From the sequence record MN871446.1: a stretch of 64,000 nt of DNA; one strand, given 5' to 3'. The translations under genes and the position numbers were made by a program. This document shows positions 592 to 30,511 of this stretch, piece after piece. Position 1 is the stretch's first letter. Each line of letters starts with the position of its first letter. Source of the DNA: Klebsiella phage KpLz-2_45. The notes below the pieces were generated by a model. That model was not told the origin of the DNA. It was given only the letters and a program-made list of their open reading frames with translations, and made no database searches.

Positions 592-3036
592 TTATTCGAA
601 AGGCAATAAAACCGACGTCGGGAAAAACTCATCGAGTAACAGCGGCTCAGTGAACCCCAAGAGTCTATCTGGCATAACTTGCCACAACTGAACACGCGGG
701 ATCTTCCTTACCCATATACCGTCGAGAGTCGTTTCCCCTAAAACAATCTCAGGATCACGTTCGATCTTTTTCACCCAGAGACCGTCCAGATTTCGAACGA
801 GGACTTCCGTTTGAAGCAGGTCGTCGGCTTCCGGCGGGTAAACCCAAAGACCGGGGAGCGCCAATGTTTTAATGATGTCGTCAAGAGGACGGTAATCGAC
901 ATGGTACAGCCACAACCCATTGAGCTCGGTGTTCTTCACGTCAATAGTGATATCTTCTGTCAGACTTCCTTTAAAGCGTACCTCGGCAATCGGGATTCGA
1001 TGAATCGTTTTGATCGCTGTATCGCAAAGTAATCCGATACCCCAATCCAGTCGGTAATAGTAGTTAGCGTAGATCTCTTTAACATTGAGATCAATCGCTT
1101 TAAACGACGGGATCACCGTACTACTTTTTCCTTTCTGTTTTTGACCAATGACCTCTACACGCGAAGGCAGCTGAACTTTACCGTACCCCTTACTTTCCAC
1201 TTTACCGTAACGGACTGCCAGGTTGTCTAAAACGATACCCGGAGCAGCGATCGTTTTGTGGACGTACTGAACGCCGTAAGAAGAAAGTTGAGTCATGATC
1301 CCGATCATTGCGCTGTGAATATCCGAGATACTGATTGTCGACCGGAGATCTGAACCTGTCGCAATAGTGAATATACTCAGTGCAAAATCTGACCATTCCT
1401 GCGGGGTTGACATGGACAATGTCCAGTTCTTTTCTTTAAACCACGTCGCGTATGTTGTCGGTTGATCGACCAGCGTACAAGGTTCGTCACAATAGAATTT
1501 CCGACAGAGGACTTCCCACTCACCACGTTGGTAAAGATCTTCCATTGACGTATACATCATCCGGTGGGCTGACAAGTTCCCTTGTATAGCAACTGCCGTG
1601 GAATAAAAGGCTTCCGTAGAGATGATCGTACTTACTGAGGTCGTCTCTGTCATTGCCACTTGTATTCCGAGTTCTGTCACATACGTTTTCTGCGTTGCTT
1701 TACGCAGCTCTGAGAACGTTGGACTTGGAATACGTTGCGCGAAAAAAGCGGTCAGCTTAGGAATGTCCGTGAGCGTTATTTCAAACTGCTGCATCACCGC
1801 GTAGACCCAAAGTACCAATGCCTCCTTCACTGACATTGACATCGCTTCCTGCGAAATAGGGTCAGTTAAGATAATATTGGCAGTGTACTTTCCGTGAGAG
1901 GCGAGGTAGATCCATTCCGTTAATAACGTATCGGTCAGCTTCCGCGGCATGGCATCAGACTGGTCGACCATCACCGATTCGAGTACCTTCGTGGGGAGTA
2001 TGTTTGTGATCGCGTTTTTGACCATATTCGGCACGGTAGATTTTTGCGTCTCAAGATAATCGGCGTTATCTTTTGCGGAGTCGACTTCATTCTCTAACGC
2101 GTCTTCGATCGTGATATACTGAATACCGCTGACAGATTCAGCCAACGTATTCTGCGGGATCTTAGCCACGGTACCGGTGCTGTAAATCCCTTCGCCGATA
2201 CTTGACGTATCTTGTTGTAATTCGTACGCGGTGAGCGGGATACGTCGCTCCGTCAGGATGTTCGCGATAAGATCAACAAAGGTACTGGTTTTCCCGGCGT
2301 GCGCCTCGATGTATTCAATGTTACGGTACAGGTACAGCGCCTGTTTGAGGCTCGTGTAGTCTTTGAACTTATTGAGTCGACCATGCGACCCCAGATAACA
2401 CCAAAGATGATAACTGTGCACTTGGGGCGTTCTTACGTACCGATTTCGGATATTAATAATTTCGCCAGGAAGGTGAGAAAACATTAAACCGAAAAAGGTC
2501 GCCGGATATTGCAGTTGTACACGAGCAGGGAGCGGCATGTACCAGCGGTTGGTAAAATTATTAATCCACTCTTGCAGGTCGCTGATTAAATACACCTCTT
2601 GTGACTCAACGTGCTCTGAATCGTAATAGAGGATTTCCCAACTCTTCGCGCTCAGAATCGTCTCCATGGGAACCGGGTTGAGAATCCCACGTATCAGCGT
2701 TTCTTGATTAGGGTAACGGGAGAGTAGATTCTGATAATAACTTGTCCCGTACGCGTAGGCTTTACGCGTGGCGCGGTGTAATAGTAAGTTATCATATGTG
2801 AACTCGATCGTCTCGAGTGTATCTAAAGAAACAACCGTCATTGGGGTATCGCTGGCATGGTATTGTCCTGCCAGATTCATATAGTACGCCCATGTGCTAG
2901 GTGCACTTGGGTCGACGTTATACCCGATAAGTGAAAGGTATTCGTTACGCATCGTGGCGGCGGCAGGAAATTTAATCGTCAATGTCTGTGCCAATGCCAT
3001 AACGCTATCTAAATATAACTTCTGCGTGGTATCCAC
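592..3036 (-). CDS. large hypothetical (probably virion) protein, 814 aa, C-terminal LxGLW repeats
   Basis: Long ORF. The C-terminal 100 aa contain four copies of L-x-G-L/I-W-V/L (LNGLWLY, LPGLWVY, LDGLWVK, LDGIWVR). No catalytic motif recognised. Confidence 0.8.
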   Translation of the reverse strand: MDTTQKLYLDSVMALAQTLTIKFPAAATMRNEYLSLIGYNVDPSAPSTWAYYMNLAGQYHASDTPMTVVSLDTLETIEFTYDNLLLHRATRKAYAYGTSYYQNLLSRYPNQETLIRGILNPVPMETILSAKSWEILYYDSEHVESQEVYLISDLQEWINNFTNRWYMPLPARVQLQYPATFFGLMFSHLPGEIINIRNRYVRTPQVHSYHLWCYLGSHGRLNKFKDYTSLKQALYLYRNIEYIEAHAGKTSTFVDLIANILTERRIPLTAYELQQDTSSIGEGIYSTGTVAKIPQNTLAESVSGIQYITIEDALENEVDSAKDNADYLETQKSTVPNMVKNAITNILPTKVLESVMVDQSDAMPRKLTDTLLTEWIYLASHGKYTANIILTDPISQEAMSMSVKEALVLWVYAVMQQFEITLTDIPKLTAFFAQRIPSPTFSELRKATQKTYVTELGIQVAMTETTSVSTIISTEAFYSTAVAIQGNLSAHRMMYTSMEDLYQRGEWEVLCRKFYCDEPCTLVDQPTTYATWFKEKNWTLSMSTPQEWSDFALSIFTIATGSDLRSTISISDIHSAMIGIMTQLSSYGVQYVHKTIAAPGIVLDNLAVRYGKVESKGYGKVQLPSRVEVIGQKQKGKSSTVIPSFKAIDLNVKEIYANYYYRLDWGIGLLCDTAIKTIHRIPIAEVRFKGSLTEDITIDVKNTELNGLWLYHVDYRPLDDIIKTLALPGLWVYPPEADDLLQTEVLVRNLDGLWVKKIERDPEIVLGETTLDGIWVRKIPRVQLWQVMPDRLLGFTEPLLLDEFFPTSVLLPFE

Positions 3037-3100
3037 CGAGCAGTCTCCTCAATAGAACAATCGATTCCCCTTTTCAGAGTGAGAGAAGGATTCTGAATTT

Positions 3101-5899
3101 ATGAATAGTTACGAAAAGAAAACGGTGAATCCTACCGGGATCAAAGTTTCCAGTCGTCCACAGGATTGGCTCCAACGCACCCCTTCGGCTACGGCAATTA
3201 TGTCGAAACTGGTTCAGGATGCGGTACATCGTACGACTACACCTGGAAATGGTGTCGATGTTCCCGACCCAACGATTTTCGACCGTCTCGTCAGTCGTCG
3301 CGCCAGAAAGAACCTGGACGCAGAAACAATCATCTCTTTAGCGCCCGACATTAAATTGATTAAACAGATGATTGTTTCCACTACCCTTTCTCCGGTCGAT
3401 ATGACCCAAGGAGAGTTAGGATTTAAAACCGAGGCGTCAGAGATCCCGCCAAGCGTCCTCAATCAAGTCACAGAGGTCATACGGGATCATTTTGAGTCAT
3501 ACTACCCCTTACGCGATAAACTCCCTGAGATCATCGGAGAGGCGTTATTTGAAACAGGTGCGTGGGTCGGTGTAATTGTCCCGGAAGCTGTTATCGATGA
3601 CATCATCAACCTTCGCGAAGTCGGCAGTTATCTGGCCACGGAAAGTTTCAACGAGAAACTGAAAACGCATTTCGTTGACGGAACCTTAAAATCTGTCGGC
3701 ATCTTAGGTGACCCAGGAATTACCGATCAGGAAATCCGTGATGCGAATAAAGGTAAAAAGAACATTCGCAGTAGTGCACCGGCACCGTCTTTAGAAAGCA
3801 TGTTCTCCATGCCGGTTATGAACCCTAATCAGGTTCGTATTAATGACAGTGCCACCATCACCGATAACCTCGGAATTATGGGTTTGAGCCATATCCGTAA
3901 CCAGATTAATGAAGAGCGTTTGAGAAACAAATACCGCTACGGACGTAGCGGAGCAGGGATGGAGGCGTACCGGTCAAGAAACGGTCATAACAACGTCTCG
4001 ACGGTCGCGAGAACGCTTTACAACTCACGGTCTGGTCAAACTAGCGTTAACCCTGTTAAAGTCATTCCTGCGGCCTCAGAAGCCAGCAGAAGCAGTATTG
4101 GTCATCCGCTGGTCATTAAGTGCCCCTCAGAATCGGTGATTCCGTGTTACCCGAAAGGCGATGAGCGAAACCACATCGGTTACGTCATTGTCCTGGATGA
4201 GCTGGGTAACCCGATCAACTTAACCGATGAACTGAACCAGGCGGCCACTAATGGTCAGATCGGTACAATGGGTGCTCAGCAACAACTGGACATGACCTCC
4301 AGTTTAATCCAGCAAACCCGCATTGCGCAGAACGGTATCTGTATGGATACCGACAAAATGGCGGCGGAAGAACGTATTCGCGTCTATAACCAGGTCTTAG
4401 AGGAAAACATCCTCAACCGTATTAAAAACGGTTTGATCGGTCGTAACGTGAAGATGGCCTGGAACGAAGATATCATGCGTATCATGATGTTCCGTCAGTT
4501 TGCGAACCAACGTACTAACCTCGTCTTTGTCCCTGCTGAACAAGTCGCGTATTTCGCTTACGACTACGACAGTAACGGGATGGGGAAATCGTTGCTTGAT
4601 GACATCAAACAGGTCTCTGCACTGCGAGCCATGACCACCTTCGCTAACTTTATGGCGGGCGTGAAGAATGCGGTAGGACGAACCAAAGTAACGATGAACA
4701 TCGACCCGCGTACACCTGACCCCGAGAAAGCTTATGCGATCTTGATTGATGAGTATCAACGAATGACCAGCACCGTTACTCCTACGGATGTCAGTTCTTC
4801 GGCGGAAATGTTCCGCGTACTCAGAATGATGGGGACGACGATTGAGGTACAGGGTAACCCACGTATCCCGAATACCACTGTGGACATTAATGAGTACCAA
4901 TCTCAGAAACAGATCATTGATGAGAACTTTACCAATGATCTTCGTCGTCAACAGTATATGGGTCTCTTTGTTACACCGGCGATGGTGGACATGACTGACG
5001 AGGCAGACTTTGCTATCACCCGTTGGACGTCTAACCAGCTCTACGCTAAACGCATCATGATGATTCAAGACGACACCTGTAAGCACGGGAAGAAGCTCGT
5101 CAGATCATACGTGAACTCGGACGGTGTTTTAATCGGACGTATTCAGAAGATCTTTGCCGAGAACAACGATAAGCTCCCTGAAGAATATCGTCTCGATAAA
5201 GAAAGTCAAATCCCGGAAGATTTAAAATACCTCGATGCGATCGACGCTTATTTTGACGCATTCTACCTTGAGTTACCTCGTCCGGAAAATAACCGGATTG
5301 AGAAACAAAAAGAAGAATTCGACAAAGTGAAAGATATGATTGACGACATTGTCGACTGTTACATCTCGAGCGAACTTCTGGGGGCATTTGCACCGGAAGA
5401 TCAATCTAAGATCGATATGCTCAGGGCACACATGACAGCGTACCTGAAACGCGACTGGTTACAGAGTCAAGGCTTCGATATGGGCTTTGTGAAGATCCTG
5501 TCGCCGGTCACGGAAGAAGATCCATCGCTGGATATGATCAAAGTCTTTACTACCGACATTGTCAATATGCTGCATAACTTTGGCGATTTCAGTTCGGCAT
5601 TGGCGGCCACCCGTGACGCGTTACTGAAACGGATGGAAGTAGAGAACCCGAAACAACATGAGATCCTTACAGCCAATAATGACGCTGGCGGCGGTTGGGA
5701 CAATGGCAGTTCCGGAAACGATTGGGACAACAACGATTCCGGTGGTGGCGACGCCTTTGGCGGTGGCGACTTCGGTTCCTTCGAAGATACCGAGGAAGAT
5801 CCTTTCGCCACGGACGAGTTAGAAGGAGGAGGAGAAACTTCCACTGAAGAGGAAGCAGATCCTTTCGCTACACCAGAAGAAACAAACGGACCTGAATAA
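3101..5899 (+). CDS. large virion protein, 932 aa, acidic Gly/Asp-rich C-terminal tail with EDPFAT repeats (portal protein candidate)
   Basis: Long ORF with SD AAGGA 8 nt upstream of ATG. The C-terminal 80 aa are a GGG/D/E low-complexity tail with two EDPFAT copies. Size matches ~900-aa portal proteins of phiKZ-like phages. The function call is inference only. Confidence 0.8.
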   Translation: MNSYEKKTVNPTGIKVSSRPQDWLQRTPSATAIMSKLVQDAVHRTTTPGNGVDVPDPTIFDRLVSRRARKNLDAETIISLAPDIKLIKQMIVSTTLSPVDMTQGELGFKTEASEIPPSVLNQVTEVIRDHFESYYPLRDKLPEIIGEALFETGAWVGVIVPEAVIDDIINLREVGSYLATESFNEKLKTHFVDGTLKSVGILGDPGITDQEIRDANKGKKNIRSSAPAPSLESMFSMPVMNPNQVRINDSATITDNLGIMGLSHIRNQINEERLRNKYRYGRSGAGMEAYRSRNGHNNVSTVARTLYNSRSGQTSVNPVKVIPAASEASRSSIGHPLVIKCPSESVIPCYPKGDERNHIGYVIVLDELGNPINLTDELNQAATNGQIGTMGAQQQLDMTSSLIQQTRIAQNGICMDTDKMAAEERIRVYNQVLEENILNRIKNGLIGRNVKMAWNEDIMRIMMFRQFANQRTNLVFVPAEQVAYFAYDYDSNGMGKSLLDDIKQVSALRAMTTFANFMAGVKNAVGRTKVTMNIDPRTPDPEKAYAILIDEYQRMTSTVTPTDVSSSAEMFRVLRMMGTTIEVQGNPRIPNTTVDINEYQSQKQIIDENFTNDLRRQQYMGLFVTPAMVDMTDEADFAITRWTSNQLYAKRIMMIQDDTCKHGKKLVRSYVNSDGVLIGRIQKIFAENNDKLPEEYRLDKESQIPEDLKYLDAIDAYFDAFYLELPRPENNRIEKQKEEFDKVKDMIDDIVDCYISSELLGAFAPEDQSKIDMLRAHMTAYLKRDWLQSQGFDMGFVKILSPVTEEDPSLDMIKVFTTDIVNMLHNFGDFSSALAATRDALLKRMEVENPKQHEILTANNDAGGGWDNGSSGNDWDNNDSGGGDAFGGGDFGSFEDTEEDPFATDELEGGGETSTEEEADPFATPEETNGPE

Positions 5900-22563: not shown

Positions 22564-22631
22564 TATTCTTCCCTCTGGGGCCCGAAAAAGTCATAGGAAT
22601 GCAAGGCCAGAAGCCTTGCATTCCGGGTTTC

Positions 22632-23531
22632 TTAGAGGTAGATACGGCCTGGGACTTCTTTTCCTGGGAGATATTCTTCCCGACCAAACTCGGTGCCTTC
22701 CAGCGCGTTGTGGTCTTGTACTGCGGAACGGATCAAGTCCTCGAAACGGGACGCTTGTGCCTCAGAGACTGCCAACAGACGACGTCCGTTATCGGCCGTG
22801 GTGAGGACACCGTTCTGATCGAGATACCCTTTTAGTGTCTCAGCGAATGCAGTGGTCTGAAGACGATGTGCGATAGGGGAACGCAGCACAACTTCAATGA
22901 TAGGGTTTCCGATCCGACAAACCAGAATCCCTAATTCCTGCATTTTCTCTTCGCGTTGAGCGGCGACAACAGGGCGACCGTTTTTTACTTCCACCGGCAC
23001 ACGAGGCGCGACTTCAGTCTCAGGAGTGAAGAGAGGTTCTGCTGCCGGTGCTTCTTTTGGTACCGGGGGCACAGCGGTGTCCGCAGGGAAATCGTTACGA
23101 ACGGAGATCAGGAATTGCTCGAAGATCTCAAACATCGCTCGAGAACCTCTGATGTAGTTCAGGACATGATCGACAGAGTTCTGCGAATTGATTTGACAGG
23201 TAAATGAATCGATCCCGCCAACTTTGAACTGGTACGTATAAAGACCGTTATCTACGCTGGTGTTTCCTTCGAACTGGTCGTTCTTAATTCGAAGAAGACG
23301 AGGGTCAGCTTTACTGACCAGGTCGAACAGTTTCTTGTACAGCGCCGACCCGCTCACACCAAACTCAGTGGAGATACCTGACGGAGTAACGTTAAAGATG
23401 TTTTCCCCGGCTTTGTCGACGTTGACCAAATTACGGATAGTATAAATCCCCCTTTGGAATTCCTCGATGGTACCTTCGTAGGAAAACGATTGCTCAAAGG
23501 GAGCGGCGATAAAGTGAATAACAATAGACAT
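22632..23531 (-). CDS. hypothetical protein, 299 aa
   Basis: Long ORF. Confidence 0.7.
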   Translation of the reverse strand: MSIVIHFIAAPFEQSFSYEGTIEEFQRGIYTIRNLVNVDKAGENIFNVTPSGISTEFGVSGSALYKKLFDLVSKADPRLLRIKNDQFEGNTSVDNGLYTYQFKVGGIDSFTCQINSQNSVDHVLNYIRGSRAMFEIFEQFLISVRNDFPADTAVPPVPKEAPAAEPLFTPETEVAPRVPVEVKNGRPVVAAQREEKMQELGILVCRIGNPIIEVVLRSPIAHRLQTTAFAETLKGYLDQNGVLTTADNGRRLLAVSEAQASRFEDLIRSAVQDHNALEGTEFGREEYLPGKEVPGRIYL

Positions 23532-23587
23532 AGTGTTTCCTTATTGAACGACGTGTCAAATTAAACTGATAAAAAGTCAAAAATAAC

Positions 23588-23609
23588 AGAAGGACCTAAC
23601 GGTCCTTCT
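23588..23609 (-). terminator. intrinsic terminator after 23612..24841
   Basis: Minus-strand read AGAAGGACC-GTTA-GGTCCTTCT followed by GTTATTTTTGACTTTTTATC. Confidence 0.6.
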
Positions 23610-23611
23610 GC

Positions 23612-24841
23612 TTATGCTTTTAATAGTGACTCTTTTGCAAGCTGTTGCAAGGTGCGGGAAACATCGAGCAGTAAACTCGACAGTTCTACAGCCGGCGTTT
23701 TGACCCAGCGACTATAAGCGATCGGATAATCGATCAGGGTACTTAGCCGAACGTTCCTCGGTTCCTGAAGACCGTCTAGTTTCCGGTACGCGTCTTTCGT
23801 GAATTGTTTCACGCGACGCTCTAACCCAGTGAAGTTTTGATCCTCGATAAAACCGAGTACCGATAACCCAACCGATTTCACGTCGTCCATCAAATCGATT
23901 ACCTCTTGCGGTTGGAAAGGCGTAAAGGCGATCTTTTCTTTATCGATATAATCGGGGTCAGAGATCATGATCACTTTCTGTCGTTGGAGTTCTTTTGCGA
24001 GTTCCAACGTAGAGGCGGCCACAACATCCGTTCGGTCTACGACTAACGAAACACCCCCTAAGAGCGAGAGTGGCGTCTGGAGTTCACGTGGGAGTTTCTT
24101 CCAGAGTTCCTTAGCGAGTTCGTTCTGGTGCTCAATTGCGTTCAGTACGTTCTCGTGGCCTTCACTGGTGATTTTTTCAACAGACTTTTCACCTTGGTCA
24201 GCGACGTCCTTACACCACCCTTTGAGAATATCCAATATGGTTTTTTGGAGGGTACTATACTGCTTACGGACAGCACCGAAATCCTTAACCGTATTATTGC
24301 CAACAGAAAGGTGACGGATTGTTTTACCGGAAACAATCGACAATTTCTTATTAGAGTAGGATCGACCGATCTTCTCTTCTGCCATATTACGAATGGCGGT
24401 AGAGAGGTTAATCATACCGCGAATACGAATACGGTGGTGTTCCCAATAATCTGTGAGTTTCCCCCAGAGCGTATCGAGTAAAGCAGCGGCGGCTTTCAAG
24501 AGCTCCGAGAGTAATGAATTCAGTGACTCTAATGCAGGGTGACCCGATAATGCCGATTCTGAAGAAGGCATCACGGCGGCGTACTGTGCACCGGTGCCTT
24601 CAGCAAGGGATTCAGTGAATGCGAGGATAATATCCATTTCTTCTTGGGTAATTTCCTCAGGGGCGATTTGCAACCGCCCCTTCTGTTCTTCCTGGGTCAA
24701 ATAACGTTGACCCAGTTCTTCGCGTTCACGTATTTCGCTTATTTCAGAATCAATCTCATCAAGATCACGGCGGGTTTCAACACTGCCTTCGGCAGCGGTG
24801 ATCTCCTCCTCAAGAGAAGGAGCGCTAAATTGATCTTGCAT
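23612..24841 (-). CDS. paralog-array protein 1 (409 aa), candidate internal head / inner-body protein
   Basis: One of four consecutive minus-strand genes sharing architecture with the next three. Ends in terminal Ala. Confidence 0.75.
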   Translation of the reverse strand: MQDQFSAPSLEEEITAAEGSVETRRDLDEIDSEISEIREREELGQRYLTQEEQKGRLQIAPEEITQEEMDIILAFTESLAEGTGAQYAAVMPSSESALSGHPALESLNSLLSELLKAAAALLDTLWGKLTDYWEHHRIRIRGMINLSTAIRNMAEEKIGRSYSNKKLSIVSGKTIRHLSVGNNTVKDFGAVRKQYSTLQKTILDILKGWCKDVADQGEKSVEKITSEGHENVLNAIEHQNELAKELWKKLPRELQTPLSLLGGVSLVVDRTDVVAASTLELAKELQRQKVIMISDPDYIDKEKIAFTPFQPQEVIDLMDDVKSVGLSVLGFIEDQNFTGLERRVKQFTKDAYRKLDGLQEPRNVRLSTLIDYPIAYSRWVKTPAVELSSLLLDVSRTLQQLAKESLLKA

Positions 24842-24853
24842 TTTACCTCCCGA

Positions 24854-26113
24854 CTACGCTGGCGCGTTCAGGCGCATCGAAGTTGAGACCGCCTCTGGCG
24901 CAGTAGACTCAACAGAAGCAGAAATATACCGGAGCGAAGCCCTTACTGTTTTAACAACGTAACGGTAGGTTTTAAAACGGTCGCCTTCGATCAGTTTCAC
25001 CGAAGAACGCATTAAAGAACCCAGTCGAGAGATATTAATACTGGTTTGACTTTTCTTGTCTTCCAGAGTCTGAATAATAGCTTTAAACTGTTTTTCTACT
25101 TTATCGTAGCTACCTGAACTTTCGCGGCTGTTTTTTACGATATTGAGTAAATTTACCCCTTCGTCAATAATAATTTTTGCTTTGGCGGCGTTCAACGGTG
25201 CGCCGGAGAAAGTAATTCCACTTTGATATACTTTCACAAGGTTAGGTGAGAGCCCATCGAGCATTTTTATTAATGTATCAACAGCATTAACGAAAGAGTC
25301 GTCCATGCCCATAAAACCTTGACCGTTGATCTTTTTAACTAAAATAGAAGTCACTGCATAACCACCCGGTAATGGGAGGGATGCGACGTCTTGTACTTTT
25401 TCAAAGTTTCTACCGCCGAAGATAGCTTCGTTATGTGCGCGATTAGGGCCCGAAAATGTTTTTGATTCATTAGGTTGAGTCAGCACTCTCGAAATAGGTT
25501 CAGCGACTTTGGCGTAGCTCTGAATGACTGCGGCGGCTTCTTTCGATTCCTGGCCCGTGAAATGATCCTCTGCGTTAATCCATTTTTCAGCGACCGCCAT
25601 CGCGTTCTCGGCCAAGTCGGACAAACCATCGCGAACGTTAACCATCATTTCAAGTACGCCGCGAAGATTTACAAACTTATTCGGGAAGCTTTCATCTAAA
25701 GAACCTTGTACAGCTAACGCTCCTGTCACCGTTGGCAATAACGTAATCTTTTCTGTTTTAAAGTTACGATGCTCTGACAGCAGACCTTTTGCGGCTTCAA
25801 TTTCTTTTTCCGCCTGCTCTACGCCAATCAGATACGTTCTGGCCCAGTCTTTGAAATCACGGAAACGTTCCATGACCCACTCGATGAGGTTTTTGAGTGT
25901 TTCTTTGATTCTACTCGAAATTTTACCGAGTGTGCTATTTTTATCCCCATCGATTGTCACGGATTCGCGGTCGGCTTCGACAGATACTTCTGAACGCTCG
26001 CCCATGAAAATACCCAGAATTTTTTGGGCATCGGTAGGAATCGCTTGACAGGATTCCAAAGAAGCCTTTACTTCGCTGTAAACCGCTAAGTCTTTTAAAA
26101 GTTGTTCGCTCAT
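24854..26113 (-). CDS. paralog-array protein 2 (419 aa; ILGIF motif), candidate inner-body protein
   Basis: Shares the ILNIF/ILGIF N-terminal motif and a C-terminus ending ...NAPA with paralogs 3 and 4. Confidence 0.75.
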   Translation of the reverse strand: MSEQLLKDLAVYSEVKASLESCQAIPTDAQKILGIFMGERSEVSVEADRESVTIDGDKNSTLGKISSRIKETLKNLIEWVMERFRDFKDWARTYLIGVEQAEKEIEAAKGLLSEHRNFKTEKITLLPTVTGALAVQGSLDESFPNKFVNLRGVLEMMVNVRDGLSDLAENAMAVAEKWINAEDHFTGQESKEAAAVIQSYAKVAEPISRVLTQPNESKTFSGPNRAHNEAIFGGRNFEKVQDVASLPLPGGYAVTSILVKKINGQGFMGMDDSFVNAVDTLIKMLDGLSPNLVKVYQSGITFSGAPLNAAKAKIIIDEGVNLLNIVKNSRESSGSYDKVEKQFKAIIQTLEDKKSQTSINISRLGSLMRSSVKLIEGDRFKTYRYVVKTVRASLRYISASVESTAPEAVSTSMRLNAPA

Positions 26114-26130
26114 TTTTTCTACCTTAAGAA

Positions 26131-27618
26131 TTAATTTGGTTTCTGGCTATTTTCGTTTTCGTCTTGCTTCTCACCTTCAAGGGAAGCTTTAGCGTATTTC
26201 AACGCAGCACGCGAAGTGGAACCGAAGAAACTCACTAAGCTACTGGTCACTGAGGATGGCATACTTGCAACGGTAGAAACGATGGAGCGTAACGCTGAGG
26301 AGATACTGCCGCCGCCTTCGCTGGTTTCGTTAATGTTCATGTTAGCGATGTTCTGGCCAGCCTGATCAACGGCGCGATCGACTTGGGACTTCTTACTTCC
26401 CGAGTTCTTCAGTTTTAACATCGCGTTCGCTACCGCCAAGGCACCGTCTGCGATCTTCGCGGCGTCTGTCGGGGAACAGCGTGAGACTTCTTTGTCCTCA
26501 ACCTGGTGGTTACGTGAGTTCCAAAGTTTATTCTCTGCCGACAGATCAACTACGATAACCTTAGAGAACTTATACGCCTTTTCCAGCGCTCTGATTCCTT
26601 CGATCGGATTTTCTGTCGGGTTAACGGTGACCACAACTGCCGCTAATCGCGCGTTACCTAAGAAAGGTTCGGACGCTTCAACAACGGCATTAACAGAATC
26701 GTCGCCTTTGAGTAACACTTCATTAGCATCGCCTGGTAAACGAATGGTGAGTTCACCTGCAATCGCTTCGGACGGATGTTTTACGCTTTCGGCGAGCGTT
26801 TTAAACAATTGATTGAACGACGCTTCGCCGCCCGGCTGGTAGCTACCAATCGCGCTTGCTACCGCCTGTGCGTTACTGTAGGTATCCTCGATGACATTGT
26901 TCAATACCATGTCGGAGATACGACCCAGGCGCATCATTTCATTCGGAACATTAGGCCAGTTACCCTCGATGAGCAGTTTACCTTTCTCAGAGAATTCAAT
27001 GTCACCAGAGCCGGGCCTGGCGTGGGTGACTTCTTCTTTGAGTTGTTCAGCTAAACTCTTAAGTTGTTCAGCGCCGTTAAAGGCGTTTTCAAGCCAGTGA
27101 CCGAACCGACTGCGGGCTTCTTTCAAAAAGGCGGAGAATTTCTGCCACCATTCACGAAGGACTTCTTTAATCCCTTCCAGTGCAACTTTCGATTCATACG
27201 GCGTGATATGCGACGCAGACTCATTGGCGACAAAGGCACGGGCAGTTTGGATACCCATGCTGTTCGAGAAAATATTCAGAATCACAGCGGCTTCGGTAGA
27301 GAGAGATTGCCCTGCATTGATCTCTGGCGCGATGGCGTCGTAAACCGCTTGGTATTTATTCGTGGTTTCAGTCAAAGACGTCAAGCCCATGATGTCGGCA
27401 TCTACCGGATCAAGAGCGTTATCAATTTCGTCGGGTAATTCGCTTTCATTGGAGTCGAAGCCGATGGGACGTTCGTCGAACGATTCGACGGATTGTTTTT
27501 CTGGTTCTACAACGGCGGACTCAATCGAGACTTGTGGACGTCGTGCGAGGACGTTTTTAATCTTGGTCATTTTAAGTATTCCTTTCCCGGGAGAAGGCGT
27601 GTTAGGAAGAAAAGTCAT
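26131..27618 (-). CDS. paralog-array protein 3 (495 aa; VILNIFSNSMG motif), candidate inner-body protein
   Basis: Aligns by eye with 27670..29928 from the ILNIF motif onward. The N-terminal region is acidic. Confidence 0.75.
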   Translation of the reverse strand: MTFLPNTPSPGKGILKMTKIKNVLARRPQVSIESAVVEPEKQSVESFDERPIGFDSNESELPDEIDNALDPVDADIMGLTSLTETTNKYQAVYDAIAPEINAGQSLSTEAAVILNIFSNSMGIQTARAFVANESASHITPYESKVALEGIKEVLREWWQKFSAFLKEARSRFGHWLENAFNGAEQLKSLAEQLKEEVTHARPGSGDIEFSEKGKLLIEGNWPNVPNEMMRLGRISDMVLNNVIEDTYSNAQAVASAIGSYQPGGEASFNQLFKTLAESVKHPSEAIAGELTIRLPGDANEVLLKGDDSVNAVVEASEPFLGNARLAAVVVTVNPTENPIEGIRALEKAYKFSKVIVVDLSAENKLWNSRNHQVEDKEVSRCSPTDAAKIADGALAVANAMLKLKNSGSKKSQVDRAVDQAGQNIANMNINETSEGGGSISSALRSIVSTVASMPSSVTSSLVSFFGSTSRAALKYAKASLEGEKQDENENSQKPN

Positions 27619-27669
27619 ACAAACCTACCGTCCACCAGGGACGGTAGGTTTGGAAGTATGCATGTTTAA

Positions 27670-29928
27670 TTACGCAGCGGTTTTCGCTGAGGCTACAGCA
27701 TAATTCAGTGCTGCATTCACTGTACGAATAGACAGAGAGACCGTACTAGAACTGAACGCGTTCAAGAAACTAACGGTGTTTTGGAAATATGCGCGCAGCG
27801 CAGTGATTTCCTGTTTAACGTTTTCACCGGTCCCTTCAACGTTGTTCGACAGTTTCAGTAAACGATCGAGGTCGGGGAGCAGCGCACTCTCAGTTTTGCT
27901 GATATCGTCTGCCAGAGAAGAGTTTTTGATTTTCTTCAGAATCTCAATAGCGCTCTCGGCAACGGCGTTGATATCAGCCACAGAAAGCGCGGGCGCTTCT
28001 TTGACTTCACTACTTTCAGTGGCGACACGGAAAGCAGGTTCTTTCGCCCACTCGTGACCAGTGACGATGACAGTAAACACGTTGCCGCCTAACAGATTAG
28101 CGGTGTATTTAAACCCTTCGCCATCGACGTCAAACGGGCCGCGTTTAAGTACGTTGCTGTATTTCTCGTAAAGAGAGCTCAGGACTTCGCGTGTACCGCC
28201 ATTACCGCTGTAGTCTTCACCGTTCATGACTTTATCAAGAACGTTCTGACGAACCGCTTTGTGGATTTCGTTAGACGCGTCAATGACAAACCCTACGGTA
28301 TCGATCATGCCGGTTGATTTGTTTTTGAACTCATTGAACGCTTTAGCGAAGTTACCGTCAACTTTCCCGCCGGTAGTTAACTGAGAAAGAAACTCGCCTG
28401 AGACAGATCCGTTTGGTGTTTTACCCTGGTCGAGACCTTTCAGCGCTTCTGCTTTACGAATCAAAATGTCAGTGCGGCTAAAGGCGGAACGGATGAATTC
28501 TTTCCCTTTGGCCATTTTATCTTTGATGAACGCGATAATACGTTCGAACCACACTTTCATGTCTTCTTGAATTGACTCAACCGCTAAGCGAGTCTGGGTA
28601 CGAGAAGTGAAGTTGTAGTTCTCCAGGGAGACATCAGACTGCAGCGGGTTACCGTCGCGTTTCATGAAGATGTTCAGAATCATCATGGCTTCAACAGAAA
28701 CACCCTTACCGTCGAGGGATTTTTCCAGGACGTCAACCACCTGAGGATAGGTGTCAAGGGCTTCGGTCAGGATACTTTCTTCATCTTCGGTGCCGGTGGT
28801 GAAATCTTCAATCACCAGGTCGCCGTCGTCAGATTCCGGTGACAGGTCAACGGGTTCTTCCGCAACCGCTTCGACAACACCTTCTGCCGGTGCTTCCGCT
28901 GCCGGGGTCTCTGCTTCCGGGGTCTCGGTGACGACTTCTTCGACTACCGGGACTTCGCCTTCCACAACAGCAGCAACTTCTTCTGGGGTGTTTTCAGACG
29001 GCGCATCAACAACCTGCTCTTCCACAACCTCAGCACTTTCAGCGGAAACAATTTCGCCATCGTGCGTGTTTTCGCCTTTACCTTCGTCCACCACTTCACT
29101 TTCGCACGGTAGAGTTTCTTCACCCTGACCTTCTGCGGCAGGTTTTTCCTGGTCGACTTCGATATCGGATTCACCGGTGCCTTCGTCTACCGGTTTTTCC
29201 TGGACGGGTTTAACTTCTTCGCCTTTACCTTCGTCGACTGCAACCTGTTCAGACGGGAGATGCTGTTCACCCGCACCGGTACCGCCTTCATTCGGCGGAT
29301 TAGTGCCGTCAGATTCACACGCGCAATCTTCAGAGGAAACTTCTTCCACAACTTCTTCGGTATCGCCAACCACTTCGTCACTTGAAGGGACTTCGCCTTC
29401 TGGGGTGACGTCAGCAACGTCAACTGGCGCTTCTTCGGTTTCGGTCAGTTCTTCGGTGGCTTCTGGGGTGACATCGACTTCGTCGGTTTCCGCCGGTGCT
29501 TCCGCTTCGACTTCTTCTGCTTCCTCGATCACTTCTTCAGCAGTGGTGTCACCGCCTTCTGCGTTGTCGACTTCTGCAACAACTTCAGCAGCTGCTTCTG
29601 GGTCGCCTGCGGCGATGGCTTCAACCTGATCGACTGTGGCTTCGCCTGAGTCAGTTACCGGAACCACCTGCGGGGGTTCGATCGGCTCAATACCGTCTAC
29701 CGGGGCATCAGTCGCTACTGGCTCTTCTACGGTGGTTTCTTCCACAACTTCTTCGGCAGGGTCTTCGCTAACAACCGTTTCATCAACGGTGACGTCATCG
29801 GATACCGGAATATCTTCAGACGGCTGGGCATCGATAACTGCTTGATCGACGACTTCTTCCGTGTTCTCATTCTCAAGCGCTGGGCTTGCTTTACGTGAAA
29901 GAACACGTTGAGTGTAAGATAATTTCAT
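27670..29928 (-). CDS. paralog-array protein 4 (752 aa) with ~330-aa acidic E/V/T/D low-complexity N-terminal expansion; candidate inner-body/ejection protein
   Basis: The C-terminal 400 aa are paralogous to 26131..27618 (MMILNIFMKRDG...). The N-terminal half is a degenerate repeat ...VDEGKGEEVKPVQEKPVDEGTGE.... Confidence 0.75.
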   Translation of the reverse strand: MKLSYTQRVLSRKASPALENENTEEVVDQAVIDAQPSEDIPVSDDVTVDETVVSEDPAEEVVEETTVEEPVATDAPVDGIEPIEPPQVVPVTDSGEATVDQVEAIAAGDPEAAAEVVAEVDNAEGGDTTAEEVIEEAEEVEAEAPAETDEVDVTPEATEELTETEEAPVDVADVTPEGEVPSSDEVVGDTEEVVEEVSSEDCACESDGTNPPNEGGTGAGEQHLPSEQVAVDEGKGEEVKPVQEKPVDEGTGESDIEVDQEKPAAEGQGEETLPCESEVVDEGKGENTHDGEIVSAESAEVVEEQVVDAPSENTPEEVAAVVEGEVPVVEEVVTETPEAETPAAEAPAEGVVEAVAEEPVDLSPESDDGDLVIEDFTTGTEDEESILTEALDTYPQVVDVLEKSLDGKGVSVEAMMILNIFMKRDGNPLQSDVSLENYNFTSRTQTRLAVESIQEDMKVWFERIIAFIKDKMAKGKEFIRSAFSRTDILIRKAEALKGLDQGKTPNGSVSGEFLSQLTTGGKVDGNFAKAFNEFKNKSTGMIDTVGFVIDASNEIHKAVRQNVLDKVMNGEDYSGNGGTREVLSSLYEKYSNVLKRGPFDVDGEGFKYTANLLGGNVFTVIVTGHEWAKEPAFRVATESSEVKEAPALSVADINAVAESAIEILKKIKNSSLADDISKTESALLPDLDRLLKLSNNVEGTGENVKQEITALRAYFQNTVSFLNAFSSSTVSLSIRTVNAALNYAVASAKTAA
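28750..29650 (-). repeat. coding low-complexity / degenerate tandem repeat region (acidic E-V-T-D rich)
   Basis: Recurring GAAGAAGT/GTTGAA-type units encode a VEE/TEE/VDEGKGE repeat. The region generates spurious antisense Ser/Thr-rich ORFs. Confidence 0.6.
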
Positions 29929-29953
29929 TTACAAATTCTCCTGGAGAGGGGGT

Positions 29954-30511
29954 TTACCGGCTACTACCGGCGACGTGACTTATTTCGCCGAAGATGACGT
30001 TGACGGTCGCCAAGAGGTCTTCAAAGCCGTTATCGTGCTTCAACCAATGATACATATAATCTTTGCCGTCGATATTCAACATCATTTTAAGTTTTGGTGT
30101 TGAACGACCACGGCGGTATTTTGGTTTGTTCGGTAGCTCTCGTTCTGCCTGTAGACAGTAAGCGCGAGAGACGATTGCCATCCGGCGACGACCTGTATTA
30201 ATAAAGGAAAGTGTATCCTCTAAAAAGGCGCGCATATGAGGCGTGAGTTTTGGGTTTTCTTCTTGCGCCTGTAACCACTCAGGGAAGAAACGGAACAGAT
30301 CCATCGCCCGGTTAATAACCTTACGGCGAAATTCCCAGGAACTGGCGTCACCTTTCGGGTCAGTCGTCAACTTTTCCCATGCGGCAGTAATCAGGTCATC
30401 CGGTTCAGGTTCGGTTTTACCCCCCTCATAGAGGGGGGAGCGGAAGCCAATCGGACTGAATTGGTAAGACTGAATGTTCATCGTACTTACACTCCGTATT
30501 CGCGTTCCCAT
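29954..30511 (-). CDS. hypothetical protein, 185 aa
   Basis: ORF overlapping the next gene by 25 nt. Confidence 0.65.
   Translation of the reverse strand: MGTRIRSVSTMNIQSYQFSPIGFRSPLYEGGKTEPEPDDLITAAWEKLTTDPKGDASSWEFRRKVINRAMDLFRFFPEWLQAQEENPKLTPHMRAFLEDTLSFINTGRRRMAIVSRAYCLQAERELPNKPKYRRGRSTPKLKMMLNIDGKDYMYHWLKHDNGFEDLLATVNVIFGEISHVAGSSR

Follow-up and report, generated by a model that had tools for sequence, protein, structure and literature searches.

A conserved acidic tract in the predicted propeptide of a giant PF12699 paralog of a Klebsiella jumbo phage

Four consecutive minus-strand genes occupy positions 23,612 to 29,928 of the 64,000-nt stretch of Klebsiella phage KpLz-2_45 DNA analysed here (sequence record MN871446.1; hereafter, the window), the largest of which, g752, encodes a protein with a hyper-acidic tract in front of a predicted helical domain. 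Judging from profile scores and gene order, the four genes encode PF12699 internal head (inner-body, ejection) proteins and stand in the position of phiKZ gp92-97. We consider it probable that they form a set of PF12699 ejection proteins, in which the acidic tract of g752 belongs to a cleaved 451-aa propeptide acting in prohead assembly and the mature domain is an exchangeable cargo. The family nature of the array is unchanged by this analysis, and both PF12699 and a giant acidic paralog, phiKZ gp97, were already known; what is added is a predicted processing map, a conserved propeptide with embedded motifs and a cassette-like exchange of the mature domain.

The window derives from a ~300-kb Klebsiella pneumoniae jumbo phage, whose nearest named species is phiKp24 (vB_KpM_FBKp24, Maaswegvirus). 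With genes for a phage-nucleus shell protein and PhuZ tubulin in its genome, phiKp24 is a phiKZ-type nucleus-forming phage. Over the 6.3 kb of the array region, the identity of the window is 97.5-98.5% with 'Serratia phage KpXa_1', its relatives and Klebsiella phage LPKP23, and 97%, at 65% coverage, with vB_kp_MJ359 (MJ359). The four open reading frames (ORFs), named here after the length of their products, were confirmed where an earlier note on this DNA had placed them:

29954-30511, minus strand: g185, context gene, homolog of the vertex-binding minor capsid protein phiKZ gp91 (PF25618 PhiKZ_gp91, E = 1.4e-54), marking the conserved start of the array
27670-29928, minus strand: g752, ORF of 752 aa (80 kDa, isoelectric point (pI) 4.05), first gene after the gp91 homolog
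26131-27618, minus strand: g495, long ORF of 495 aa
26131-27570, minus strand: g495, corrected ORF of 479 aa (see below), the best-conserved canonical PF12699 paralog
24854-26113, minus strand: g419, ORF of 419 aa
23612-24841, minus strand: g409, ORF of 409 aa

Family membership and gene order

All four proteins score above the curated gathering score (27 bits) of PF12699, the Pfam family of phiKZ-like internal head proteins, with 43.2 bits for g409, 46.9 for g419, 97.2 for g495 and 87.1 for g752; phiKZ gp92-96 and SPN3US gp53/54 were scored likewise as references. The match of g752 spans aa 381-745, and g409 (E = 4e-11) is the most divergent of the four. PHROG families labelled 'internal head protein' are likewise matched by all four, among them PHROG 2497 by g752 (E = 1e-31) and g495 (E = 9e-27), and PHROG 12254 by g409. 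These PF12699 scores, together with the synteny with phiKZ gp92-97 and SPN3US gp53/54, bear out the inner-body/ejection identity and phiKZ-like character that the earlier note had proposed for the array. Its description of the genes as tandem paralogs holds for PF12699, which all four pass, whereas pairwise BLASTP is significant only for g495 with g752 (1e-11) and g419 with g495 (2e-4), and g409 has no pairwise match among the four array proteins. The ILNIF/ILGIF region thought to be common to all is found in g752 (aa 417), g495 (aa 113) and g419 (aa 32), with IILAF in the aligned column of g409; similarly, three of the four C-termini end in Ala as described, and that of g495 ends in ...QKPN.

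Membership is specific, since a family hidden Markov model (HMM), built from 150 representatives (50%-identity clusters, drawn from 1.84 billion proteins), gave negative bits for seven neighbouring or unrelated virion proteins, namely g299, g301, g416, g513, g185, phiKZ gp89 and phiKZ gp90. In the PDB, a 48-sequence family profile matched phiKZ gp93 (2e-13) and gp162 (1e-5) of entry 8Y6V; single-sequence phmmer searches of the same database with g495 and the g752 C-module gave zero matches, as did a word-indexed homolog search with the g752 C-module. An AlphaFold2 (AF2) model of g752 aa 380-752 is all-helical and of low confidence (mean predicted local distance difference test score (pLDDT) 53.8, predicted template modelling score (pTM) 0.54), and the best Foldseek matches of this low-confidence model are jumbo-phage internal head or virion proteins, at template modelling (TM) scores of 0.4-0.5. 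PDB searches found no experimentally solved helical domain of the PF12699 family.

The four paralogs directly follow g416, g301 and g185, the position of the family downstream of gp89, gp90 and gp91 homologs, and the order gp87-88-89-90-91 followed by the array also occurs in phiKZ, SPN3US, Moabite, PhiEaH1 and Goslar. The array proteins thus resemble phiKZ gp92-96/162/163 and SPN3US gp53/54 in their PF12699 match, in their position after gp89-90-91 homologs and in a variable paralog number (three or four in the window clade), which ranges from two to seven between phages (PMC5694885, PMC10052503). They differ in sequence (~15-30% identity) and in that the virion data belong to phiKZ and SPN3US, the window array being known from its genes. 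The window clade is further distinguished by four stable ortholog types (752, 479, 419 and 409 aa), the order of which is kept even in the metagenome contig L014. This contig, the single one added by the metagenome scan, carries giant, 487-, 387-, 415- and 321-aa genes in the same order at only 25-37% identity, so that the four paralog types must be old. When viral contigs were searched with the pro-region, and subsequently with an alignment of the conserved module, the only matches were phiKp24 and 2050HW themselves.

Predicted protease sites and processing

PF12699 corresponds to 'paralog family A' of SPN3US, whose members gp53 and gp54 are present in >600 copies each and lose propeptides of 125 and 137 aa, respectively, to the prohead protease gp245, which cuts at A-x-E (PMC5694885, PMC10052503). 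Mass spectrometry has mapped the mature N-terminus of gp53 to E125↓GWKETLKDLFER and the cleavages of gp54 to E124 and E137 (PMC10052503). A check for prohead-protease S/A/G-x-E motifs, suggested in the earlier note, revealed two near-invariant sites that align with these mapped cleavages. In columns assigned with MAFFT and hmmalign, the downstream site places gp53 E125 and gp54 E137 against g752 AVE451↓SIQEDMKVWFERI, g495 ALE148↓GIKEVLREWWQKF and g409 ALE105↓SLNSLL, and the upstream site places gp54 E124 against g752 SLE436↓N, g495 ANE133↓S, g419 SVE46↓A and g409 SSE95↓S. Glu occupies P1 of the upstream and downstream sites in 147/150 and 143/150 representatives, and Ser, Ala or Gly occupies P3 in 144/150 and 135/150, respectively, against a background of S/A/G-x-E in comparable mature-domain windows of 15% (maximum 37%). 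Only Met1, the two site Glu residues and one Gly are near-invariant columns in the 48-sequence alignment.

A third predicted site closes the leader, with P1 Glu in 133 of ~138 family representatives; the profile leader aligns with KLSLE13↓S14 of phiKZ gp93, where cleavage at E13↓S14 has been confirmed by proteomics and cryo-electron microscopy (cryo-EM) (PMC11297242). Within the array, the leader and upstream sites are present in all four proteins and the maturation site in three. As for the enzyme, tblastn with SPN3US gp245 detected prohead-protease homologs (E = 1e-20) in phiKp24 (record positions 245263-245826) and in KpSz_1 and KpLz_1_41, near-identical relatives of the window phage; in the 64-kb window itself the protease was sought and not found. 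The sites divide g752 as follows:

29872-29928, minus strand: leader MKLSYTQRVLSRKASPALE, aa 1-19, ending in the predicted protease site ALE19↓N
28774-29871, minus strand: hyper-acidic, predicted-disordered tract, aa 20-385, net charge -118
29317-29325, minus strand: CxC motif, aa 202-204
29071-29238, minus strand: four DEGxGE units, aa 231-286
28576-28773, minus strand: pre-cleavage module, aa 386-451, ALDTYPQV...SVE413↓AMMILNIF...SLE436↓NYNFT...AVE451↓S
28666-28680, minus strand: ILNIF motif, inside the pre-cleavage module
27670-28575, minus strand: predicted mature helical domain, aa 452-752 plus stop codon, 32.6 kDa, pI 6.2

Since the ILNIF motif and the entire acidic tract lie upstream of the two conserved sites, both fall within the predicted 451-aa propeptide, and head maturation is predicted to part the tract from the domain that is packaged and ejected. 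Predicted mature masses are 32.6 kDa for g752, 37.4 kDa for g495, 41.0 kDa for g419 and 34.3 kDa for g409, close to the 31 kDa of the mature SPN3US products (PMC5694885). For the two smaller paralogs that possess all three sites, the corresponding features are:

26131-27174, minus strand: g495 predicted mature domain, 37.4 kDa; sites SIE33↓S, ANE133↓S and ALE148↓G (long-ORF numbering)
23612-24526, minus strand: g409 predicted mature domain, 34.3 kDa, pI 8.9; sites SLE11↓E, SSE95↓S and ALE105↓S

The array proteins share this precursor plan with the phiKZ and SPN3US proteins: an S/A-x-E leader, an acidic linker, two internal S/A-x-E sites and a C-domain predicted to be helical. We propose that each precursor consists of the leader, an acidic linker of very variable length, a helix-containing ILNIF module bracketed by the two sites, and a helical domain of ~300-370 aa, and would enter the prohead through its N-terminal region. 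There, a gp175/gp245-type prohead protease would cut each leader and additionally E436 and E451 of g752, E133 and E148 of g495, E95 and E105 of g409, and E46 only in g419. By analogy with phiKZ, SPN3US and Goslar, the released helical domains of ~33-41 kDa would stay in the head with the DNA and be ejected. The conserved N-terminal blocks of g752 may dock the precursor to shell or core, as residues 14-84 of phiKZ gp93 do, and its polyanionic tract could serve as a bulky filler or scaffold that resembles DNA and is broken up before packaging or in the course of it. Cleavage, the fate of the tract, presence in the virion, ejection and the scaffold-like role are what we infer for the window phage; the most likely place of action of the g752 tract is the assembling prohead and not the mature virion. 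For therapeutically relevant Klebsiella jumbo phages, the scheme offers testable predictions in the form of maturation sites in the four proteins.

The scheme draws on a well-known family. phiKZ gp92-97, gp162 and gp163 have a domain or fold in common and undergo proteolysis while DNA is packaged; four of them, gp92, gp93, gp95 and gp97, enter the host with the DNA, Goslar gp58 is ejected too, and gp93 and gp97 knockouts of phiKZ are viable. Chimallivirus heads contain hundreds to thousands of copies of PF12699 proteins, which are high-copy virion proteins in phiKZ, SPN3US and Goslar, the last of which packages thousands of copies. The inner body is not visible in recent cryo-EM reconstructions of phiKZ or Goslar, and a 2026 structural study calls the role of these proteins 'a key unsolved mystery'. 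Giant phages have no confirmed scaffold of the T4 gp22 type, and long propeptides have been discussed as possible scaffolds (PMC5694885).

Several points weigh against the proposed scheme. Cleavage, copy number and ejection are extrapolated to the window phage from its relatives, the array genes are not mentioned in the phiKp24 papers, the AF2 model of the g752 C-part is of low confidence (pLDDT 54), and g419 has no second (maturation) site. The scaffold or space-filler role is read from composition and position only. Moreover, removal from the mature domain is not equivalent to proven removal from the virion, because phiKZ and SPN3US heads keep some propeptide material.

In a rather unlikely alternative, the acidic tract stays in the mature head, covalently or physically, as an inner-body polyanion that repels DNA and tunes spooling, pressure or ejection. 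phiKZ gp97, a protein of similar layout, is listed among the abundant, ejected inner-body proteins; the strong conservation of the tract shows that it has a function; and T4 retains small acidic internal peptides from its core proteins, a precedent on the same side. Retention is nevertheless hard to reconcile with the two near-invariant protease sites between tract and helical domain, and ~-118 charges per copy would presumably be energetically unfavourable in a DNA-packed head. The phiKZ ejection experiments used C-terminal tags and therefore report on the C-terminal domain only. In SPN3US, some propeptide peptides are detectable in heads, whereas most propeptide regions gave no detectable signal in mature particles (PMC10052503). 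The suggestion in the earlier note that the acidic expansion tunes packaged DNA or ejection is disfavoured for the same reason, namely the position of the tract upstream of the two near-invariant sites.

T4 offers two further comparisons. Its internal proteins (IPs) IPI, IPII and IPIII and Alt, with a capsid targeting sequence (CTS), also carry an N-terminal targeting peptide cut after Glu by a gp21-type prohead protease and are packaged and ejected; however, the CTS measures 10-20 aa, compared with 46-451-aa propeptides here, and T4 has a separate scaffold, gp22. The likeness is functional only and extends to neither sequence nor fold; no Pfam or PHROG match links the array proteins to T4 IPI-III or Alt. 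The T4 core/scaffold proteins gp22, gp67 and gp68 are, like the g752 tract, acidic and prohead-internal, and the protease breaks them down into small fragments that for the most part leave the head; they are a possible functional analogue of the g752 propeptide. No homology connects them, and the g752 tract is rich in Pro, Val and Thr, predicted to be disordered rather than coiled-coil, and fused to a cargo that would be retained.

Among the smaller paralogs, the start of g495 is most likely Met17 (27570), giving 479 aa: this ATG has an AAGGA ribosome-binding site and coincides with the ortholog starts, whereas the ATG at 27618, further upstream, falls within the T-tail of a 14-bp hairpin and has no ribosome-binding site. 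Annotation is corrected for this start codon and for the 'hypothetical protein' labels in LPKP23 and phiKp24. The short-leader paralog g419 has lost the Glu of the downstream site (TLG63). At this position, the window has STLG and phiKp24 has STLS, and the L014 ortholog (2971-4134) keeps SME58↓SIGSKIKE; processing of the 419-type paralog may thus differ in the Klebsiella clade. The mature domain of g495 is conserved (75.5% identity to phiKp24) and that of g409 is fast-evolving (42%). A candidate C-terminal trimming site of g495 and g419 (S-x-E after the AAL.Y..AS helix) was dropped, being absent from the closest g495 ortholog, phiKp24 gp014, which has 'ECLTS' there.

The acidic tract of g752

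The tract of ~366 aa consists of 24% Glu, 9.6% Asp, 16% Val and 8% Pro, with five Lys and Arg absent, and a charge-hydropathy test puts it on the disordered side of the boundary. The earlier note had described it as a degenerate acidic repeat of ~330 aa; high acidity was confirmed over a somewhat greater length, but the sequence is conserved and not a degenerate repeat. VDEGKGE-type units are limited to four copies at 16-17-aa spacing (aa 231-286), an island specific to the window lineage, and Tandem Repeats Finder found no DNA tandem repeat under the tract except for a 15-nt x1.9 match. 'Repeat expansion' was dropped as a description, since there is no DNA repeat and the tract aligns over its whole length with phiKp24 and Centimanus.

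Conservation extends well beyond the closest relatives. The g752 orthologs of phiKp24 (gp015), Centimanus, MJ359 and Moabite measure 808, 814, 756 and 757 aa, respectively. Six divergent giant proteins share 63 invariant positions and have invariant blocks in common, namely the leader and VVDQ.VID..P (aa 1-36, the latter at aa 20-36), a PPQ..P.T..GE.TVDQ...GD...AE.V.E.D block (aa 85-133), an (E/D)xCACE motif (aa 200-205) in tracts that are otherwise free of Cys, and the module ALDTYPQV...S.EAM.LNIF..RDG...SLE.YN.T...A.E (aa 388-451). The leader is conserved in seven acidic-giant representatives, and 22 of 84 columns of the pre-cleavage module are invariant among seven giants. In all nine family representatives of ≥560 aa, among the 150, the N-extension is hyper-acidic (net charge -77 to -118). 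By these alignments, the tract is an old, conserved feature of a distinct giant-paralog subfamily, not a recent expansion. The idea that it is an expansion peculiar to one paralog is contradicted by the 76% identity with phiKp24, by the blocks common to six relatives, by the acidic extensions of all nine long members and by the similar layout of gp97. The VVDQ, TVDQ and CACE blocks are candidate shell or core contacts within the 451-aa polyanionic propeptide.

The same data bear on a reading of the tract as neutral low-complexity filler, generated by replication slippage in one paralog. It would fit the biased composition and the indels that set 451-aa apart from 510-aa pro-regions in relatives. 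Yet there are no DNA tandem repeats, the pro-region is 76% identical to that of phiKp24 against a shuffled-composition baseline of 29%, the 63 invariant positions include the CACE motif, and such a tract recurs in phiKZ gp97 as well as in no fewer than nine 50%-identity clusters. With next to no probability left to it, this explanation is effectively refuted by the conservation data. The tract is not enriched in S/A/G-x-E, with 20 motifs observed and 19.6 expected from composition (P = 0.51); because the motif stands at expectation, the notion of a tract 'designed for shredding' is unsupported, a point against the prohead scheme.

phiKZ gp97 (816 aa), an abundant, ejected, non-essential inner-body protein placed by others in the PF12699 fold family, has the same three-part design as g752. 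Its net charge is -151; a leader ending in SLE13 is followed by a ~450-aa acidic disordered tract (aa 14-460 also lie on the disordered side of the charge-hydropathy boundary), sites AME513 and SLE532, and a ~280-aa helical domain, and the C-domain matches the family HMM end-to-end (aa 412-816, E = 5e-7). It thus shares with g752 the leader, a hyper-acidic tract of >300 aa, two conserved sites and a PF12699-type domain predicted to be helical. Unlike g752, which comes first in the array and scores 87 bits, gp97 is the last gene of its array and falls below the Pfam PF12699 threshold; its tract is not alignable with that of g752 and lacks the VVDQ, TVDQ and CACE blocks, and its leader lacks MK.YT.R.L. 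Orthology finds no backing in tract alignment, leader type or array position, and the resemblance may reflect shared ancestry or convergence. In the comparison with phiKZ gp93-97 proposed in the earlier note, the family profile finds gp93, and gp97 resembles g752 in design but cannot be called its ortholog.

By contrast, the acidic giants of Serratia phage Moabite/2050HW (757 aa), phiKp24 (gp015) and Centimanus are, like g752, the first genes after the gp91 homolog and are followed by a terminator; the first paralog of Moabite has a g752-like layout and a net charge of -108. Together with the metagenomic P0011, P0013, P0014, P0018, P0022 and P0023, they share the leader, the ALDTYPQV...LNIF...SLE..ALE module and net charges of -77 to -131, and differ in tract length (~220 to 490 aa) and in mature domains of different types (24-39% identity); all count as true orthologs or near relatives of g752. 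Their annotation goes no further than hypothetical or 'internal head protein', and the family literature searched, a scope that left the primary phiKZ proteolysis paper outside, does not apply the word 'acidic' to these propeptides. In P0018 (870 aa), a hydrophobic/basic insertion of ~120 aa (aa ~270-395), with GFLGGLVGFLIGGTGWTPFVGAAVNGAV... followed by a Lys/Arg-rich helix, interrupts the middle of the acidic tract directly before CACE; P0013 has a shorter helix at the same place, with an S-N-E↓G site ahead of it. Goslar gp53 (L011 15118-18495, 1,125 aa; ~330 copies per virion) appears to combine a moderately acidic N-region with two PF12699-like helical modules downstream of it (aa ~475-745 and 817-1060) and is a tandem-domain giant, different from both g752 and gp97.

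The conserved blocks also invite a reading in which part of the propeptide is retained as capsid cement, with g752 aa 20-36 and/or 85-133 binding between capsomers on the inside and the acidic spacers serving as tethers that are cut away. Such behaviour is seen by cryo-EM in two family members of phiKZ: residues 14-84 of gp93 stay on the inner capsid surface after cleavage and cement hexamers, the helix-rich domain being released, and residues 19-134 of gp162 are likewise found on the inner surface (PMC11297242). The N-terminal region of the family profile aligns with gp93 residues 9-110, and the VDQ-core blocks, invariant in the six divergent giants, recall the AEVDQIENNP of the gp93 helix-loop-helix. 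Still, the similarity of the g752 blocks to gp93 14-84 covers a short stretch and was assessed visually, single window proteins gave no phmmer match in the PDB, and ~250 aa of conserved-length polyanion would be left unexplained. We regard partial retention as an improbable account of the tract when taken by itself; it is compatible with the prohead scheme and not exclusive of it.

Very unlikely is a role as an ejected DNA-mimic decoy shielding the incoming genome, analogous in principle to acidic anti-restriction proteins. The charge density of the tract (~-0.32 per residue) is DNA-like, the protein family is injected with DNA, and the adjacent mature domain shows arms-race-like turnover. However, the tract is the conserved and not the fast-evolving part, is predicted to be disordered rather than a folded mimic, and is separated by conserved protease sites from the injected domain; no anti-defence family was matched in Pfam and PHROG scans, PADLOC-type libraries being outside the scan.

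Exchange of the mature domain and other features of the locus

Neighbouring structural genes of the window phage and phiKp24 are 83-91% identical, a baseline from which the two parts of the giant paralog depart to very different extents:

Window and phiKp24: pro-region 75.7%, mature domain 38.7%
Window and MJ359 (genomes ~98% identical): pro-region 98.7%, mature domain 29.8%
phiKp24 and Centimanus: pro-region 99.2%, mature domain 32.5%
MJ359 and Centimanus: pro-region 75%, mature domain 71%
P0011 and P0018: pro-region 58%, mature domain 24%
P0019 and P0022: pro-region 58%, mature domain 32%
L014 and P0011: pro-region 90%, mature domain 49%

The uncoupling of the two identities indicates that the distribution of at least three mature-domain types (A in the window, B in phiKp24, C in MJ359 and Centimanus) does not follow the genomic backbone. 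In the comparison of the window with MJ359, DNA homology ends at 28555 (codon 458, seven residues past the predicted cleavage), is lost over 27661-28554 and returns 10 nt after the g752 stop codon. Between phiKp24 and Centimanus it ends ~50 residues past the site and returns 41 nt before the stop. Since the breakpoints differ, the two exchanges must have been separate events. Taken at the level of sequence, the giant paralog appears to be a conserved handle carrying a hypervariable cargo, which has been exchanged by recombination between phages that are otherwise 98-99% identical. Conserved handles and variable cargo are likewise contrasted in the IP loci of T-even phages, which resemble the g752 pattern.

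In both MJ359 and Centimanus the 419-type paralog is absent. The deletion is clean in MJ359 (L001 7231-7265), whereas in Centimanus (L004 10992-11092) a remnant of ~100 nt with homology to the 3' end of phiKp24 gp013 is left. The different boundaries and the 3' remnant indicate two independent losses, and g419 is a dispensable paralog. Both phages also carry a 'type C' mature domain on the giant paralog. Because the g495-type gene, which lies between exchange and deletion, is somewhat more diverged than the flanks in both phages, a single imported block may explain the co-occurrence of type C with loss of the 419-type gene. Derivation of the replacement mature domain of MJ359 from the missing g419 paralog was tested, and no similarity was found.

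The exchange pattern also lends itself to a more elaborate reading, for which we see only a small chance: the pro-region would be the chimallivirus counterpart of a scaffold and capsid-targeting handle in one, a polyanionic, DNA-like placeholder filling and organising the giant prohead until it is shredded, and the helical domain a swappable, ejected cargo that recombination replaces just past the maturation site and that diversifies under pressure from host sensors of ejected phage proteins, such as Juk-like systems. In any case, related phages with different mature domains, or with one paralog missing, amount to a natural experiment for separating capsid from host action and for studying immune targeting. 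If the scaffold-plus-cargo reading is true, PF12699 arrays would be modular delivery platforms, and the breakpoint at the cleavage site would be the first genomic signature of this modularity.

Two terminator-like hairpins delimit the three smaller paralogs:

27620-27652, minus strand: hairpin between g752 and g495, 14-bp stem, followed by TATGACTTTT; separates g752 from the three smaller paralogs
23585-23612, minus strand: hairpin, 12-bp stem, at the end of the g495-g419-g409 unit

Judging from the hairpins that follow g752, g409 and g299, the transcription units may be [...g185-g752], [g495-g419-g409] and [g299], and the phiKp24 and Moabite records have terminators annotated at the matching place 3' of the giant gene. 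The hairpins after g752 (27610-27652, 14-bp stem) and g299 (22586-22624, 13-bp stem), both on the minus strand, are each followed by the identical decamer TATGACTTTT, located 32-49 nt ahead of the next gene at both sites. Hairpin and decamer could constitute a terminator plus re-initiation signal; as a general intergenic signal the combination was rejected, occurring at only two sites in the window. The orphan gene g299 (22632-23531, minus strand, 299 aa) closes the array, has no match in Pfam or PHROG scans and is 60% identical to phiKp24 gp011, compared with 83-91% for neighbours; at the corresponding place, Moabite (358 aa) and contig L014 (321 aa) each have a gene of comparable size. Another fast-evolving head-internal protein may be encoded by g299.

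The mechanical 185-aa ORF of g185 overlaps the end of g301 by 25 nt (30481-30511 of the window), and since the gene annotated in relatives is 175 aa long, Met11 at 30481 is the probable start. Long, Ser/Thr/Ala-rich plus-strand ORFs antisense to the acidic tract (28751-29128, 29177-29629 and 29496-29771) are by-products of the GAA/GAG/GTN-rich coding strand and not genes; the same coding-strand bias accounts for the strongly negative AT skew of positions 28001-30000.

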